Below, one piece after another: positions 4,815-62,828 of a stretch of DNA of 64,000 bases. Numbering within the stretch: the stretch's first letter is position 1; each line of letters starts with the position of its first letter. Origin of the DNA: an uncultured Rhodospirillaceae bacterium. Its GTDB lineage: Bacteria > Pseudomonadota > Alphaproteobacteria > UBA9219. Both the position numbers and the translations under genes were made by a program. The notes under the pieces were generated by a model, which had not been told where the DNA came from, ran no database searches, and saw only the letters and a list, made by a program, of their open reading frames with translations. The stretch is taken from the NCBI GenBank assembly GCA_964587125.1, contig CAZPKC010000001.1, positions 14,872-78,871 of the forward strand, written 5' to 3'.

Positions 4815-5729
4815 ATGAATAAGACTATTAGCAATCAGGCTTTACACGGGGATTGTCCATCTGCAGACTCTCCCTTCTGGTATGCCCCTGAAATTCTGCC
4901 TGCAAAATACGACGAAGAAGAAGTAAAGGAAGCTTCTCCCGAAGCCCCCAAAGGCAGAAAACATATCCTTCTGGAACACGACAGCGAAGCGGCTCCTCAC
5001 GTTTCTAACTTGTCGAATATCGCCGCCCTCCGCTGGGACATACGCTCTTTCTCCGACATAGACGCGGTTGTCTGCGCGGTATACATCCCCTCCGATCCGG
5101 ACGCTTCGGATGCATCGTCCGATCTTGAGGATGATCCTCTCGATGAGAAAAATCTTCAGGATGATTCTCTCGATGAGGAAGACACGGACCCCCAGGCCCC
5201 GCCCAAAAAGGAACATTACGGTTTTTCCAGCGCAGAGATAAAACAGATTCACGCGCTCAAAAAGATTCTTGAACTGAGCGATCATGCAAACAGTCTCCTT
5301 TCAAAACCGACGGACGAACAAATTGAAATCCCCGGTAATTTCATTCCCGATCATGCAACAAGAATCCCCAACGAAATGATGGGATATGATCTTGCCGAAG
5401 CTGGATTTACCGCTGCGAGCCTTAATATGCTCAAAGACAAAAGCCCTCAGGCGTATAAGCGCCTCGCCTGTTTAATGGATTTCGGCAGGCAAAAATTGTT
5501 GGAAGAGAAGAGGGTCAGAGCCAGCAAACTCGCCGCTGAACAAGCGCGGCGTTACGGCGGCAGAAGTTATGGCCCTGTCGTTCCTGACGCACAAATGCGG
5601 TCCTACAGGGCGTTGAGAAAACTTCCCGCTCCTTCGTCGGGCGCATCAAGAGATTTGGATTCTCTCTTTCCGAAAGGTTTTTCGGCTGATTTAGAGTCGA
5701 GAAGGCCTCAAAAGATATATTCATTATGA
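4815..5729 (+). CDS. Hypothetical protein (~304 aa), strongly acidic and Asp/Glu/Ser-rich, with an internal ~30-nt tandem repeat
   Basis: ORF 4794..5729. The ATG at 4815 is preferred because GAGGAG lies 6 nt upstream, and the 4794 ATG sits inside the CCCAATAAATATGG motif. No recognisable domain. Confidence 0.5.
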   Translation: MNKTISNQALHGDCPSADSPFWYAPEILPAKYDEEEVKEASPEAPKGRKHILLEHDSEAAPHVSNLSNIAALRWDIRSFSDIDAVVCAVYIPSDPDASDASSDLEDDPLDEKNLQDDSLDEEDTDPQAPPKKEHYGFSSAEIKQIHALKKILELSDHANSLLSKPTDEQIEIPGNFIPDHATRIPNEMMGYDLAEAGFTAASLNMLKDKSPQAYKRLACLMDFGRQKLLEEKRVRASKLAAEQARRYGGRSYGPVVPDAQMRSYRALRKLPAPSSGASRDLDSLFPKGFSADLESRRPQKIYSL

Positions 5730-19456: not shown

Positions 19457-19857
19457 GCCAGACGGTCGGATGATCGCCTACCGCTTTCTTGAGCGGTAGG
19501 AGGAAAGTCCGGGCTTCGGGGGAAAAGGGCGCCGGATAACGTCCGGTTGGGGCGACCCAAAGGAAAGTGCCACAGAAAATAAACTACCCGTTCATTTGAG
19601 CGGGAAAAGGTGAAAAGGTGCGGTAAGAGCGCACCGCGTTTTTGGTAACAGAAACGGCACGGAAAACCCCGCCCGAAGCAAAACCGAATAGGAGCCGCAT
19701 AGCGCATATCTGGTCTTCGGATCATAGATGCGCGGCGTTTTCCCCGCGCGCGGTTCGGGTTGGTTGCTTGAGGCGTTCGGCAACGAACGTCCTAGATGAA
19801 TGATCGTCCGCCGCATGAAAGTGCGGCGACAAAACCCGGCTTATAGACCGTCTGGCA
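19457..19857 (+). ncRNA. rnpB: RNase P RNA (bacterial type A)
   Basis: Universal GGAGGAAAGTCCGGGCT (P4) segment. The P1 helix is formed by GCCAGACGGTC (5') pairing with GACCGTCTGGC (3'). ACAGAAA and GGTAAGAGCGCACC elements are present. Confidence 0.85.
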
Positions 19858-19991
19858 ATTTTTTATAATGAACGGTTCCTTGTTTAGCGCGCAAGATGGA
19901 TTGAAAAACAATTCTCTTTGAAAAAGCCGGCAGAGGACATTAAACATGCGATGTCAGTCTGGCCCTCTCATAATGAAATCGGCCCCGCGTC

Positions 19992-49404: not shown

Positions 49405-50790
49405 TTACCCCCAGCCCCTGATGCTTAGAAAAAAGTTTCGAACTCGTGTCGCTACCGCCAAAATTTTTTGACGAACCAATACTACAGAAGCGAACTTGTC
49501 TGTCAAGGGAAGCAAGACACTAATGGTCTCATTCAAAGCCTTTGCCGCATGGTCGCGGGCATCCTTGCCGCCATAGGCGCGTCCGGCGACCGACATTGAA
49601 AACTCTTCGGTTTTGTTGGCGTTGCGGGTTTCTACGTCTTTTTTGACCTTGATGAGATTTTCGTTGCCGGACTTAATCATAGTCTGCGTCGGGCCGAACC
49701 TTCCTCGCATTTCAAACTGCCGCCGTAAATGCGAAGTGCGGAGAGAGTCCAGCTTGCGGACTTCGGTATCGACTTTGACCTTTTCCATCACGGCGGGGTT
49801 TCCCGATGCAATGGCTTTGATCTCGGCATAGGTCAAAGCGCCGCCGTTGATGTCCTCGGCGGTGCGAACGGAGGTGTCGCCGTTCATAACCTGTTGGATA
49901 AACTTCGCCTTGGTTTCCAAAGTCTGCCACATATAGGCATCAAACGAGCCTTCGGTGACGTAACGGCATATCCGCACCGCGCTGTTTTCATTGCCCTGCC
50001 GTAAAATGCGCCCGTCGCGCTGTTCGATGTCGCGGGGACGCCACGGTGCGTCGATGTTGTGGGAAGCATAGAGCTTACGCTGCACGTTGGTTCCGGCTCC
50101 CATTTTCTCGGTCGAGCCGAGCAAAACGCGCACCTGTCCGCTGTTGACCTTATCGAACAACGCCTGTTTTGCTGCGTCGGTATCGGCTTCGTGAATGAAG
50201 ACGATCTCATGCGGAGGAACGCCGCGCTCGATAAGTCCGAGGCGAATAGCTCCATAAACGTGAAAACGATCGGGGCAGGGCGTCGATATGTCGCAAAAAG
50301 CCAATTGCGTGGCGCGTAGGGCTTCCGTTTCCTTCCAGATAGCAAATATCTCTTGGGTTGCTAGGCTGACCTTCGATTGCGGGTGGGGCAATGCCAGCGG
50401 GTTGATAAGGCGCATGTCGAGCGCGGCTTTGCGCCCGTCGCCGGTGATCTTCAGCATATTGTCGTTTTTCGGATCGACGCTGCCGTTTTTGATCTTTTCG
50501 GAACGTTCCATCAGTCCGTTCACGAACGCTTTCAGTTCTGGCGTTGCGGGAGCGATGATAATGCGGTTCTTGCCTCCTTCGAGCGCGGGACGCGGCAGGT
50601 CGAGCATTTCCGACGTTTGCACGTCGGCAAAGTCCCGAAACATGGTCAGAAGTTCCGGCAAATTGACAAACTTGGCGAAGCGCGTGTGCATCCTGTAGCC
50701 CGCGCCGGAGGGAGCAAGCTCTAATGCTGTGACCGCCTCCCCAAAGTTGGCCGCCCAAGCGTCAAACTGCGCCATGCCTGCCTTCGCCAA
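49405..50790 (-). pseudogene. 5'-truncated helicase gene: helicase C-terminal-domain fragment resembling the C-terminal half of large phage/plasmid methyltransferase-helicase proteins
   Basis: The ORF begins at an internal Met with no N-terminal ATPase motifs I-III. It contains VLLGSTEKMGAGTNVQ and QRDGRILRQGN (helicase motifs V/VI). It is flanked by the tRNA-Gly fragment. Confidence 0.5.
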
Positions 50791-51076
50791 GGCTTCACGC
50801 GAGCCGTGGAAGCCCTTCGCTTAAGAATGGCGCATGTGAACCGCAAGATTTATTGCCGCTTGGCTTTACAAAACAAGAAATGGCAGACTTCTGGCACATG
50901 GCAAATGCAATGGCGAACGTCGAGTTGAAGATTGTGGAGCACTTGTCTTTTCCAAAGTTCAAGAGGGTAATACCACCTACAGTCCTTTTTGGGTTATCAA
51001 AACATAGTACGATAACATCCTCTGCGTTGCCGCCTCCTTGCCGCCCGATTCAGAAAAAATTCCAAAGGAACGTCCA

Positions 51077-51955
51077 ATGACCAAACTGGACATGCAAAAA
51101 GTCGTTAGGCTGATCGAGGAAGTTGCCAAGCAGGAAATTCTCCCGCGCTTTGGCAAACTTAGCGAAAGCGATATCGCTTATAAGCAACCCGATGATCCCG
51201 TCACCGTCGCCGACGAGGGGGCTGAAAGAATTCTGACCGAACGGCTGGTCGATATGATGCCCGGTGCGCTTGTTGTCGGAGAGGAAGCCTGTTCCCGCGA
51301 TCCCTCCATTCTTAACCGTTTTGCCGAGGACAGGCCGGTATTCGTGATCGACCCCATAGATGGTACGCGCCACTTTGCGGCAGGGCGGCCAACTTTCTTT
51401 ACGATGGTTGCTCTGGTTGAGAAAAACGAAATTATTGCCGGTTTCGTCCATCATCCTTTATCCGGCGAAACTATGACGGCGGAAAAAGGTGGCGGTGCTT
51501 GGTTGAACGGCAAGAGGCTTCGCGCTCTTGCGCCTGTACCGTTGCGCGAGGCCAGAGGAACCATAGGACAAAGGGTTTGGCATAAGCTGCCGGAAGAACG
51601 CGCCAAGCTGCAAGCCGCCATGCCTTCAATTGAGTGCAACCCTCTATCCGGCTATGCCGCGCCACGCCTTTTAATGTCGGGCACTTATTTCGGCCTCACG
51701 GAGGCCGTGCCGCAAACGCATTTTAGATGCTGCCCGTATTGGAGCACGCCTTGGGACGATGCGGCGGCTCTTCTTGCCCATGCCGAGGGCGGCGGAGTGT
51801 TCAGTCATTGGGATGGTCAACCGTATCAGCTCACTCAATTGCGCAGGGGAATCATCATGGCTCCTAATCGCGCCATGATCGACGAAATTGTCGAATTTTT
51901 TAAGCCATACGATTTGCGGAATCAAATTTTGAAACAACAGCAATTGAAACTCTAA
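51077..51955 (+). CDS. Inositol monophosphatase-family protein (second, divergent paralog)
   Basis: VGEE and VIDPIDGTRHF motifs, 292 aa from MTKLDMQ. Confidence 0.65.
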   Translation: MTKLDMQKVVRLIEEVAKQEILPRFGKLSESDIAYKQPDDPVTVADEGAERILTERLVDMMPGALVVGEEACSRDPSILNRFAEDRPVFVIDPIDGTRHFAAGRPTFFTMVALVEKNEIIAGFVHHPLSGETMTAEKGGGAWLNGKRLRALAPVPLREARGTIGQRVWHKLPEERAKLQAAMPSIECNPLSGYAAPRLLMSGTYFGLTEAVPQTHFRCCPYWSTPWDDAAALLAHAEGGGVFSHWDGQPYQLTQLRRGIIMAPNRAMIDEIVEFFKPYDLRNQILKQQQLKL

Positions 51956-52342
51956 AAATATTTAAGGAGCCGTATTATGAGCTTTGCCATAAACAAGCCG
52001 ACCACCCTTGATACAAGCAAGGTTGAGAGAGATTCCAAAAATACGGAATACGAAATCAAATTGGAATGTCTTGACACCGGCAAGGGGCTTTTCGACTTCC
52101 TCGACGATATTGAAATCGCGCTGGATTCCAACACCCATTGGTGCATGTCGAATATGAGGTAAGCTCTTTCGGATCGTTCGGCGTTGCTTCGTCATATCGG
52201 CTGGCAAAACTGGAATCCTATCGCCATAATGGCACAACAGGTCGTCAGGCGTTGCAAGCCCCTTTGGGAAACAGTAAAATCCTATAGGAGTTGGGGGGTG
52301 AAAAATGCCCGCTCAACAGCTTTGCGCCGGAGCGGGCATTCG

Positions 52343-52430
52343 CATAGGGAGCGGGATTCGAACCCGCGATACCGTCGCCGGTATATCCTGTTTTCAGTAG
52401 GACGCCTTAAACCACTCGCGCCATCCCTCC
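52343..52430 (-). tRNA. Aberrant class-II tRNA (Ser-type body: long variable arm, G73) with anticodon loop CUGAAAA (GAA) and no encoded CCA; probable pseudogene
   Basis: Minus strand: GGAGGGA-TG-GCGC..GGCGT-(T)CCTA-CUGAAAA-CAGGA-variable arm TATACCGGCGACGGTATC-GCGGG-TTCGAAT-CCCGC-TCCCTAT-G. Acceptor has a G2.A71 mismatch. The anticodon stem is 4 bp plus A31.C39, or alternatively a 9-nt loop. Confidence 0.5.
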
Positions 52431-52983
52431 AAAGGTGAACCAAAAGGGCATCCCGTTTCCGGGATGCCCTTCAGTTCTCAGAACAGCCTACCGATGGTCA
52501 GGCAGCTGAAGCCATTTTGGATAGAACTTCCACCCAAAGCCCAGACCGAACCTAAAACCGGTCGACTGGCTGGCTTCGAGACAAAAAAATGCACACAACA
52601 TGTACATCTCCGTTGCTCGTGTGCGGGGTCCCTTACGGTAGCCGACTCGCACATAAGGCCAGCAGTGGGGTCAGTTGATTTTAGCCTGATTGGTCGACCC
52701 CGACACGCCTCGGCTATTTCGTTGTGATGTGAGATAGGGAGTGTGGGGTCGCGTTTCAAGACCTTACGCCACCAAAAAATGCAGGGCACAAAACCAAAAT
52801 GCAAGATCGGCGATGATTCTCAACGAATGAGCCAATAATTATGGAAAATGTGAGAAAAACAGCCCTTTCCGTATCTTTCGGGAAGGGCCGTTTTCTTGCG
52901 GCATTTTGCCTTTGCCGTGATTCCCCGGTGATTCCCGGAGCACTTTCCAGAAAAGCAAGACTTCTGGAAAGTGCAGTAAATAT

Positions 52984-53060
52984 TGGCGGACCCGGCGAGA
53001 TTCGAACTCGCAACCTTTGCCTTCGGAGGGCAGCGCTCTATCCAGTTGAACTACGGGTCC
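52984..53060 (-). tRNA. tRNA-Arg (anticodon CCG), CCA encoded
   Basis: Perfect cloverleaf: acceptor GGACCCG/CGGGTCC, D-loop AACTGGATA, anticodon loop CUCCGAA, T-loop TTCGAAT, G73, CCA. Confidence 0.9.
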
Positions 53061-61498: not shown

Positions 61499-61573
<75 letters not shown>

Positions 61574-61640
61574 ACTTTTTCAAGCACTTAGCGTATAGCT
61601 AATTTGCGCCAAATCGCCTTTGTGCGTGTCTCCGTGCGTG

Positions 61641-62828
61641 TTAAAAAGTTAATTTGCCGATATTTGGTTTGGCAATCATCCTTTTTGCCGGTGCTTTTGG
61701 CGCAACCTCAATATCTCTCTCGCTCCTTCCTTCAAGAGCGTGCTTTGCTTCCATCAAGAATGTCGGGTTGTGGTGCGCGTATATGCGCTCCGTTGTCCGG
61801 GTACTGGTATGGCCGAGATATTTTGAGATAACCCACATCGGCACGTTTGCTTGCGCCATCCACGTTGCCGCTGTGTGGCGTAGCGTATGCGGCGTTACGT
61901 CACTAAGGCCAGCATCCCGCGCAACGCGGCGGAAGCTCTGGTCTATGCGTAAGATCGGCTTTCCAAAATATTCAATCACGTATTTATCGGCGCAATTTTC
62001 CGGAGCACGGCTTTTGGCAATCCGCAAGAAGGTCATGAGTCTGCTCGGTATCGGAACAATGGCACGGCGTTTGTTGGTTATCTTGCTTCCCGCTTTGTTA
62101 AGATCAATAACGCCTCTTTCGAGATCGACTTGTGACCACGTGAGGGTAAGAAGAGCCTCCTTTCGCGCGGCGGTATAAAGAGCCAACAGGATAAAAAATG
62201 ACAGGTGCCAACGAGCGTATGAATGAAAGCGCACCTGTCCTGTCTTGGGGTCAATACGACGCTTGGAACGGGTTGCTTTTAATAGGCGCACAACCTCGTC
62301 ACGAGTCAGCCAACGGTCTTTAGGGGCCGTTGGTGCTGGTTTCCAGATCGGCACCGCTGAGGCCAGCCGCCCTTGCTTGTAATCATGGCGAATGGCCGCG
62401 CCTAACACGCCCAATTCACGCGCAATCAACCCATCGGAAGCGTTTTTCCCTGCTTTAGCGGCTGTTTCACGCCTATATTGAGCATATTGGCGGCACAGTA
62501 CCGGCCTTACGTCAGAAACCGGCCTATGACCCCAAAAAGGGATAAGAGATTTAATATTGTTGCCTGAAGCTTCTTGGCTGACTGTATGGATCAAGTGCTC
62601 TTCTGCATAAGCCGCCAGAACGTCAGCTATGATTCGTTTGGTGGAGCTGACAATATCGACCGGTTGGTCTTTTTCGACGTTATGCTTGCTGAGTTCTTGG
62701 TCAGCCTCGATGCGATTTCGAGTGCCCGTTGATTTCTTACGTTCGCGTCCGCCTTCGTACCAATATATGTACCAACAGTCACGTGCTTCGAGCCACTTGA
62801 GGTAGGCTCCTTTATTGCATTTTGACAT
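61641..62828 (-). CDS. Tyrosine-type site-specific integrase (phage integrase family)
   Basis: C-terminal catalytic block HTLRHTAATWM...LGHTSTRTTERIYAH with R..H..R..Y residues. N-terminal arm-binding-like region. Confidence 0.85.
   Translation of the reverse strand: MSKCNKGAYLKWLEARDCWYIYWYEGGRERKKSTGTRNRIEADQELSKHNVEKDQPVDIVSSTKRIIADVLAAYAEEHLIHTVSQEASGNNIKSLIPFWGHRPVSDVRPVLCRQYAQYRRETAAKAGKNASDGLIARELGVLGAAIRHDYKQGRLASAVPIWKPAPTAPKDRWLTRDEVVRLLKATRSKRRIDPKTGQVRFHSYARWHLSFFILLALYTAARKEALLTLTWSQVDLERGVIDLNKAGSKITNKRRAIVPIPSRLMTFLRIAKSRAPENCADKYVIEYFGKPILRIDQSFRRVARDAGLSDVTPHTLRHTAATWMAQANVPMWVISKYLGHTSTRTTERIYAHHNPTFLMEAKHALEGRSERDIEVAPKAPAKRMIAKPNIGKLTF

Follow-up and report, generated by a model that had tools for sequence, protein, structure and literature searches.

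A Ser-type tRNA-like gene with a Phe-type anticodon loop and an open acceptor end: one diverged copy of a candidate family found on mobile elements

Introduction

What is a gene that has the body of a serine tRNA, the anticodon loop of a phenylalanine tRNA and an acceptor stem that does not close at its top? The question is raised by the gene at 52343-52430 of a 64,000-nucleotide stretch of contig CAZPKC010000001.1, from an uncultured Rhodospirillaceae bacterium, which was analysed as a whole and is called the window herein. A first-pass annotation had regarded this gene as a tRNA-Ser(GGA) altered by G-to-A changes, and had offered two outcomes for it, a decaying pseudogene or a tRNA that inserts serine at phenylalanine codons. 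We find that a tRNA look-alike RNA is likelier than either a lone decaying or a lone mistranslating tRNA, and that the gene belongs best among tRNA-like or pseudo-tRNA genes, within which it marks out a candidate family. Searches of the open-access full-text literature turned up no report of a natural Ser-type tRNA, from bacteria or phages, that combines a GAA anticodon with an open acceptor.

The gene is neither a canonical tRNA-Ser nor a tRNA-Phe

Read on the minus strand, from 52430 to 52343, the sequence forms an 88-nucleotide class II cloverleaf of the Ser type, GGAGGGA-UG-GC[G]C-GAGUGGUUUAAG-GCG-UCCUA-CUGAAAA-CAGGA-UAUACCGGCGACGGUAUC-GCGGG-UUCGAAU-CCCGC-UCCCUAU-G. The long variable arm, G73 and the GGAGGGA acceptor strand that the first-pass annotation had described are all present, as are the CUGAAAA loop, the mismatches A31.C39 and G2.A71 and the missing CCA. 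That description holds for the sequence itself, but it had missed that the gene reads on the minus strand and that the 5' strand of the D stem contains an additional G (GGC[G]CGAG). The acceptor top also has G1.U72, and neither of its first two pairs is Watson-Crick. The anticodon loop is seven nucleotides long (C-U-GAA-A-A), is closed by A31.C39 and has U33 and A37. Acceptor pairs 3-7, the T arm (a stem of 5 base pairs, GCGGG/CCCGC, with the loop GGUUCGAAUCC) and the variable arm (18 nucleotides with a stem of 6 base pairs) are intact; the D loop is GAGUGGUUUAAGG, and CGAAUG comes after G73 in place of CCA.

A standard CUGGAAA loop was looked for, and the loop was CUGAAAA both in contig Ga0455670_0000193 of the Joint Genome Institute (JGI) metagenome 3300041809 and in the Logan assembly of SRR6946416, which was made independently. 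Since all 88 nucleotides are identical in the two assemblies, an assembly or reading error is unlikely, and we ruled it out as an explanation. ARAGORN, which had been proposed as a check, called the gene tRNA-Phe(gaa) with a length of 89 nucleotides. The Rfam tRNA model gave it 31.6 bits, compared with a gathering score of 29, with 62.3 bits for the neighbouring tRNA-Arg(CCG) and with 65 bits for tRNA-Gly(GCC), the other neighbouring tRNA, and the gene had no Rfam match other than tRNA. The window gene is a genuine Ser-type tRNA-like gene.

We compared it with the known classes of tRNA. A canonical bacterial tRNA-Ser has a long variable arm and a Ser-type D arm, both of which are found here, but its acceptor also has seven pairs that are Watson-Crick or G.U, G1-C72 and G2-C71 among them, and its anticodon is one for serine (NGA or GCU); the window gene retains G73 but lacks the seven pairs, and its anticodon is GAA. 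With the bacterial elongator tRNA-Ser(GGA) it shares the class II cloverleaf, the D and T loops, the length of the variable arm and G73, and its loop is a single base away from CUGGAAA. Unlike tRNA-Ser(GGA), it has GAA, non-Watson-Crick pairs at 1-72 and 2-71, an extra D-stem base, a mismatch at 31.39 and no CCA. A tRNA-Phe combines GAA with a class I body, a short variable loop and A73; here the anticodon loop alone fits, since the body belongs to class II and G occupies position 73. The tRNA-like domain of transfer-messenger RNA and the bacterial Y RNA YrlA mimic the L shape of tRNA and are not ordinary adaptors. These RNAs lack a normal anticodon arm and are members of Rfam families, whereas the window gene matches only the Rfam tRNA model.

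Allo-tRNAs were a further candidate. Mukai et al. (PMC5389517) define them by an acceptor/T-stem architecture of 8/4 or 9/3, and they are likewise Ser-like, derived from metagenomes and equipped with anticodons that do not match serine; their acceptor stems, however, are intact, whereas the window gene has a seven-position acceptor with an open top. An allo-tRNA as so defined, with an 8/4 or 9/3 acceptor branch of 12 base pairs, was ruled out by the 5-base-pair T stem, and an 8-base-pair acceptor register leaves mismatches at both ends. The window gene is neither a canonical tRNA-Ser, nor a tRNA-Phe, nor an allo-tRNA.

Ser-type genes with a GAA loop form a recurrent family

We scanned viral and metagenomic contigs with a pattern that required a Ser-type D arm, the CUGAAAA loop, class II spacing and the T loop. 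Ser-type/GAA genes were present on 5 viral and 52 metagenomic contigs, and about 50 distinct sequences are now known, from several phyla as well as from phages and a plasmid. The plasmid member was found by BLAST on pMNOD01 (NC_011892.1, about 158.6 kb) of Methylobacterium nodulans ORS 2060 and has the same GGAGGGA/UCCCUAU acceptor strands, T arm and downstream hairpin as the window gene. Among plasmid records BLAST returned only pMNOD01 and ordinary tRNA-Ser(GCU) genes, and among phage records no useful annotated homologue.

A cloverleaf alignment of 41 distinct members, including the window gene, places the irregularity at the top of the acceptor stem. Pair 1-72 is unpaired in 25 of the 41, and 10 of the 16 that do pair are G.U; 2-71 is unpaired in 33 and 3-70 in 15, whereas pairs 4-7 are unpaired in none to three. 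Across the alignment, pairing stands at 95-99% in the D, anticodon, variable and T helices, with a covariation score of 0.628 versus 0.189 for shuffled controls (0 of 500 shuffles as high). The fraying takes two forms. In 3'-frayed members the 5' GG(A) is retained and the 3' strand is altered (UCCCUAU, UCCCUAA, CCCGAUA, UCCUUGG and others), while 5'-frayed members retain the 3' UCC-G and have an altered 5' strand (CCUGAGG, CCAGAGG and others). The 3' ends UCCCUAU and UCCCUAA occur in more than 10 lineages, and CCA is encoded in 6 of 48 members. An extra base at the position of the D-stem insertion of the window gene is also present at five other loci (L232, L242, L221, L208 and L223; L numbers denote collected loci), and the CCUGAGG group shares the 31.39 mismatch. 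Members score 32-49 bits with the Rfam tRNA model, as opposed to 56-60 bits for two canonical Ser(GGA) genes, with the window gene and L232 (31.9 bits) at the bottom of the range. Many have a TATAAT-like -10 box about 8 nucleotides upstream, which the window copy lacks.

The features that mark a member are a Ser-type body, CUGAAAA, non-Watson-Crick pairing at 1-72 and/or 2-71 and the absence of CCA, and all are found in the window gene. So is a terminator hairpin within about 10 nucleotides of position 73, which in the alphaproteobacterial subgroup has the form GCCCGCUCCGG...GAGCGGGC; a promoter of its own, also a family feature, is missing. The family is recurrent, and the window gene is one diverged copy of it rather than a unique product of decay. 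A one-off local decay from tRNA-Ser(GGA) by G-to-A changes, as had been proposed, is contradicted by a combination that recurs in about 50 sequences and is absent from the GGA controls described below.

Two further searches bear on the acceptor end. Pairing between leader and trailer, which could extend the acceptor stem, was inconsistent between members and was ruled out. The 3' motif UCCCUAW by itself led, in viral contigs, to nothing but normal class I tRNAs whose 5' strands match.

Some members have additional features around their ends. In the CCUGAGG subgroup (L216 1020-1165 and L222 6812-6958, both on the minus strand) the first five nucleotides pair with an upstream UCAGG, and the resulting hairpin, UCAGG-G-AAGGN...NCCUU-G-CCUGA, is conserved, has compensatory changes in its inner stem and competes with the acceptor stem. 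In L205 (2561-2647, minus strand) and L229 (43-120, plus strand) the sequence GGGGAUAUGGCGGAAUUGGCAGACGC after the frayed 3' end resembles the 5' part of a tRNA-Leu gene and overlaps the last acceptor positions; ARAGORN called no second tRNA there. On the Acidobacteria-like contig L241 an Acido-Lenti-1 RNA (RF01687, 47.8 bits, 5650-5695) lies about 800 nucleotides from a member.

An open acceptor top goes with the GAA loop

Since our pattern fixed the GAA loop, the presence of GAA proves nothing by itself, and the same pattern was therefore run with other loops as controls, in the viral collection only. With the GGA loop it found 96 loci with 74 distinct sequences, among which 73 have a 7/7 acceptor, 65 encode CCA and 72 have G73; acceptors in the Tyr, Trp, Cys and CUA classes are mainly 7/7. 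GAA itself gave 5 loci. None was found for GGC, GGG or GGU (together GGB, the single-step neighbours of GGA), nor for UAA or CAA (YAA, the G35A products of other Ser isoacceptors). Counted as distinct sequences, there is 1 open-acceptor copy with GGA versus 4 with GAA. As random decay of truncated Ser(GGA) copies would give far more open GGA than open GAA copies and the reverse is seen, in this one small sample an open acceptor top goes specifically with the GAA loop. A deamination hot spot in the anticodon loop is disfavoured because these contigs yielded no G35A product of either Ser(UGA) or Ser(CGA).

The viral loci also contain Ser-type tRNAs that are unusual in other ways. Many phage tRNA-Ser(UGA) genes in L084-L201 have the loop CCUGAAA, with C33 for the near-universal U33 and otherwise normal stems (for example L086 11-101, L088 8549-8635 and L099 5114-5201). 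L421 and L449 have Ser-type bodies, perfect acceptors and CUA (amber suppressor) anticodons, and L462 joins a Ser-type body and a GGAGGGA/UCCCUCC-G acceptor to a CAC (Val) anticodon.

Compensatory changes maintain the rest of the cloverleaf

Selection on the RNA was assessed where related copies could be compared. L160 and L164 are prophages of the Bacillus/Streptococcus siphovirus type (Firmicutes) in which the tRNA-like gene is flanked by the genes for the terminase large subunit and the portal and reads from the opposite strand; it has both a terminator and a TTGACT/TATTAT-like promoter of its own. Between the two, flanking coding DNA is 50-65% identical, compared with about 94% for the unit of gene, frayed end, trailer and terminator. 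Compensatory double changes distinguish the two units, with U-A replaced by C-G in the anticodon stem and A-U by G-C in the variable arm, and occur in the terminator too. In a third prophage, L203, the gene likewise sits between terminase and portal and away from any integrase. Within the alphaproteobacterial subgroup, L204 and L217 differ by a compensatory change at pair 4-69 (C-G versus U-A), while pairs 1-3 are poorly matched in both, with mismatches or G.U only. The cloverleaf outside the acceptor top is maintained. That compensatory changes keep the gene in Firmicutes prophages is a second result at odds with a one-off decay.

Mobile elements and defence islands carry the family

Pfam and PADLOC searches of the neighbouring genes gave assorted defence and mobile-element genes only. 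Tyrosine or serine recombinases lie within 120 nucleotides of the gene in L210, L207, L237 and L202, and in L206 the gene adjoins an integrase-bounded mini-island of 3 kb that encodes integrase, KwaA and KwaB (Kiwa). The neighbours are HEPN_AbiU2, a HigBA-like pair and a serine recombinase in L232; a type II restriction enzyme and a C5 methyltransferase in the viral contig L178; and an NYN RNase, a recombinase and insertion sequence (IS) elements on pMNOD01. The carriers of the family are mobile elements and defence islands.

Such neighbourhoods admit a mundane explanation, namely that these genes are debris or attachment sites of integrative elements: near-complete tRNA-Ser copies located at recombination sites, or serving as such, with a function at the level of DNA and with end nucleotides that belong to the element or the junction. 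Mobile-element integration reportedly creates partial or pseudo tRNA genes, as Williams is said to have described in 2002. Integration-derived partial tRNA genes are common and are often mis-called as tRNAs (PMC9897764), and the genes studied here resemble them in lying at a border of accessory DNA, with recombinases near several loci, a low tRNA score and a call as a tRNA. The recombinases listed above and the integrase that bounds the Kiwa mini-island are what this explanation expects; in addition, the cargo beside the gene varies, the window gene lies in strain-specific DNA next to tRNA-Arg(CCG), and the first five nucleotides of the CCUGAGG group are the outer arm of the upstream inverted repeat.

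Integration fragments, however, are usually 3' pieces of about 40-50 base pairs that are repeated at the far end of the element, whereas the window gene is a near-whole cloverleaf, has no repeat partner that we could find and has specifically GAA as its anticodon. Neither the 64-kb window nor the family contigs, as far as they reach, yielded a second copy of the tRNA-like sequence, partial or complete, and within the same reach no partial copy is accompanied by an intact copy or a direct repeat. The copies in L160, L164 and L203 lie between terminase and portal with a promoter and terminator of their own, away from any integrase, and the compensatory changes preserve RNA helices, those of the variable arm and the terminator included. 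An origin as debris also leaves unexplained why the anticodon is GAA rather than GGA, GGB or YAA. We regard the recombination-junction explanation as plausible, though unlikely.

The window copy may be silent

Downstream of the window gene, a terminator-type hairpin begins 6 nucleotides after position 73, and the sequence of its stem is kept beside other family members. The motif CCCGCTC..GAGCGGG occurs in 12 of the 484 collected loci. Two of these (L001 and L002) are the window's own locus, and in six other family members (L178, L204, L206, L217, L232 and L352) the motif adjoins the tRNA-like gene; in L229 it is about 5 kb away. Searched alone in viral contigs, it gave 3 matches, 2 of them without a tRNA-like gene. 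Upstream, a second terminator-type hairpin ends so close to the 5' end of the gene, 11 nucleotides before it, that there is no room for a recognisable sigma-70 promoter. Since the window copy lacks a promoter, follows a terminator, has two extra irregularities and has the lowest score, it may be a silent or decaying member of the family.

Taken further, the gene could be a lone pseudogene, a duplicated or foreign tRNA-Ser(GGA) that decayed through G31A, G35A, C71A, C72U, the D-stem insertion and loss of CCA. Its five or six lesions and bottom Rfam score, its position in a degraded island with a terminator just upstream and no promoter, and the lack of a close homologue would all fit such a history. 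Every type of lesion, however, recurs in independent family members, the sequence of the downstream hairpin is shared with six of them, and the T arm, the variable arm and acceptor pairs 3-7 are intact. Lone decay is a possible final state of the window copy; as its origin it is contradicted by the recurring lesions and the downstream hairpin, and overall we hold it improbable.

What the RNA may do

SerRS recognises its tRNA by the long variable arm, by G73 and by the first acceptor pairs, G2-C71 above all; RNase P and EF-Tu depend on an acceptor end that is paired (for EF-Tu, at 1-72), and CCA is required for aminoacylation. From this biology, an open acceptor top and a missing CCA would be expected to impair maturation, charging and delivery to the ribosome, and the encoded RNA would serve poorly as a substrate of RNase P, of CCA addition, of SerRS and of EF-Tu. 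The first-pass annotation was right to count the acceptor defects and the lack of CCA against a normal translating tRNA. Rather than decode, the RNA may act as an L-shaped tRNA mimic that shows a Phe-type anticodon loop to some tRNA-binding factor, and mobile elements could use such a mimic in conflicts with their hosts. We put the probability of this reading as a whole, a mobile-element-carried family of RNAs that appear unchargeable as encoded and would serve as tRNA mimics or decoys with a Phe-type loop in element-host conflicts, at about one half. Phage tRNAs that counter tRNA-cleaving defence systems (PMC11555353) offer a partial parallel: they too are tRNA-type genes on phages or mobile elements in a setting of defence and counter-defence, but they are functional and replace cleaved host tRNAs, whereas the family looks unchargeable and its body and anticodon do not match. 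Pairing between the loop and the U tail, T-box binding, RelA activation and sequestration of PheRS or SerRS were also considered as roles and were unsupported.

An active mistranslator, the second outcome offered by the first-pass annotation, would have to be processed, acquire CCA and be serylated by SerRS, which ignores the anticodon, before it could place serine at UUC/UUU. The gene's canonical seven-nucleotide loop (U33, A37), its G73 and its long variable arm would suit that role. By the tRNA identity rules, however, G2.A71 and G1.U72 remove acceptor pairs that SerRS and EF-Tu use; the CCA is missing, an extra base sits in the D stem, A31 and C39 do not match, and the search for a promoter gave none. 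Nearly every GAA member has an open acceptor top, and an open top across a family is what purifying selection against charging would produce.

Serine is mis-inserted by tRNA-Ser variants with a Phe anticodon, GAA in yeast (the engineered tS*-F(GAA), PMC6125640) and AAA in human cells (the tRNA-Ser-AGA G35A allele, PMC12993449), which like the window gene combine a Ser body with a Phe anticodon reached through G35A. Those variants are chargeable and their Ser-for-Phe insertion was demonstrated, whereas the window gene, to judge by its sequence, would offer neither a paired acceptor top nor CCA. The yeast GAA version was among the most toxic anticodon variants and was tolerated only with a destabilised acceptor stem (PMC6125640). 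In that design a destabilised acceptor stem restrains a toxic tRNA, which is a likeness to the present genes and agrees with the notion that GAA copies in nature persist only if their acceptor is disabled. Active insertion of serine at UUC/UUU thus seems unlikely for the RNA as encoded, and we consider the mistranslator very improbable.

A variant of this idea, which we also think decidedly doubtful, is a conditionally active tRNA: a Ser body that SerRS would charge without reading the anticodon, a highly toxic GAA, and inertness conferred by the open acceptor and the missing CCA. Such an RNA would become active only if RNA surveillance were blocked or its 3' end rebuilt, for example during phage infection. 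In 3'-frayed members with a 5' GG, if the 3' end were trimmed to U70 and CCA then added, G2-C71, G1-C72 and A73 would result; the scheme fails for members with a 3-70 mismatch and for the 5'-frayed group. The outcome could be lethal Phe-to-Ser mistranslation, as in abortive infection, or a cryptic Phe-type tRNA.

Several observations weigh against the mimic reading. At the window copy itself, a minus-strand promoter scan found no site upstream of the gene and a terminator stands in the promoter's place, and this copy is no more than 79% identical to any other member. The census is biased by a pattern that fixes the GAA loop and the D and T loops, and the contrasts of GAA with GGA, GGB and YAA come from the viral collection only, in which GAA has 5 loci from three to four lineages. 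All-against-all clustering of the neighbouring open reading frames revealed no constant partner gene, and the frequency of nearby recombinases also fits a DNA-level role. Finally, the family is heterogeneous, with 5'-frayed members, 3'-frayed members and a few whose acceptors are perfect; two of its entries, L212 and L214, have perfect acceptors and CCA and are probably tRNA-Ser(UGA) genes with a one-nucleotide deletion, errors or unrelated.

If the family is functional, it would represent a class of tRNA-derived RNA with a fixed and odd design, a Ser body with a Phe anticodon and an opened acceptor end, with phages, plasmids and defence islands as its vehicles in Firmicutes-, Alphaproteobacteria-, Acidobacteria- and Bacteroidetes-like contexts, and would be a new player in tRNA-centred conflicts between hosts and mobile elements. 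The member in the cultured strain M. nodulans ORS 2060 makes the question directly testable. If the genes are junction debris, the result is ordinary, yet it provides a useful warning for annotation: ARAGORN calls of 'tRNA-Phe' can distort tRNA gene sets and the inference of genetic codes in metagenome-assembled genomes.

Genomic setting of the window copy

The features around the gene are collected in Table 1. Both neighbouring tRNAs encode CCA, as had been noted, with tRNA-Gly(GCC) ending in UCCA. The best matches of the NadE protein encoded nearby are in Rhodospirillales-like metagenome-assembled genomes, at 64-80% identity. The closest relatives retain the order purB-orf131-NadE and, where the contigs are long enough (L003-L006), tRNA-Arg(CCG) as well; similarity ceases at the 3' end of tRNA-Arg (about 52980), and none of these relatives has a Ser-like tRNA at the syntenic site. 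Since the relatives share nothing past that point, the limits of the island cannot be mapped. The inositol monophosphatase gene and the small open reading frame do not adjoin NadE or tRNA-Arg in relatives. In the truncated helicase, Pfam found only Helicase_C, and the weak PADLOC matches are to the middle of DrmD/BrxH/HmaA helicases, which are 900-1100 amino acids long; we take the fragment to be a remnant of a mobile or defence element.

The window gene therefore lies in strain-specific DNA, probably derived from a mobile element, beside a tRNA gene that may have been used as an integration site, and the edge-of-island position given by the first-pass annotation is borne out by this DNA and the adjacent remnant. 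With strain-specific DNA and a helicase remnant present, no integrase was found within 9 kb of the gene. The 64-kb window contains no direct repeat of the 3' half of the gene or of the 3' end of tRNA-Arg, and no repeat of a tRNA 3' end that could mark the border of an island.

Table 1. Features of the window mentioned in the text, with their coordinates
Feature	Position	Strand	Basis or setting
Ser-type (class II) tRNA-like gene, loop CUGAAAA (GAA)	52343..52430	-	sequence, ARAGORN, Rfam, family alignment
Terminator-type hairpin GCCCGCUCCGG...UUGAGCGGGC then AUUUUU	52300..52337	-	predicted fold, alignment
Upstream hairpin GGGCAUCCCG-GAAA-CGGGAUGCCC followed by UUUU	52442..52469	-	sequence, promoter scan
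Spacer of ~510 nucleotides with two terminator-like hairpins (~52940-52974, ~52856-52889)	52470..52983	-	sequence
tRNA-Arg(CCG), CCA encoded (ends GCCA)	52984..53060	-	ARAGORN, Rfam, synteny
Truncated SNF2-type helicase, C-terminal part only	49405..50790	-	Pfam, PADLOC
Inositol monophosphatase family gene	51038-51955	+	between helicase remnant and tRNA-like gene
Open reading frame of 61 amino acids	51977-52162	+	between helicase remnant and tRNA-like gene
tRNA-Gly(GCC), then phage-type integrase and SLFN/AlbA_2-domain gene	61499-62800
Bacterial RNase P RNA class A	19458-19859	+	335 bits

The spacer between the upstream hairpin and tRNA-Arg has no convincing open reading frame and no Rfam match; it may thus be what is left of a degraded gene, or a small RNA that has escaped annotation. 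Farther away, the tRNA-Gly(GCC) gene with the integrase and the SLFN/AlbA_2-domain gene that follow it forms a second, more typical tRNA-inserted island, and the window also contains the gene for a class A RNase P RNA.

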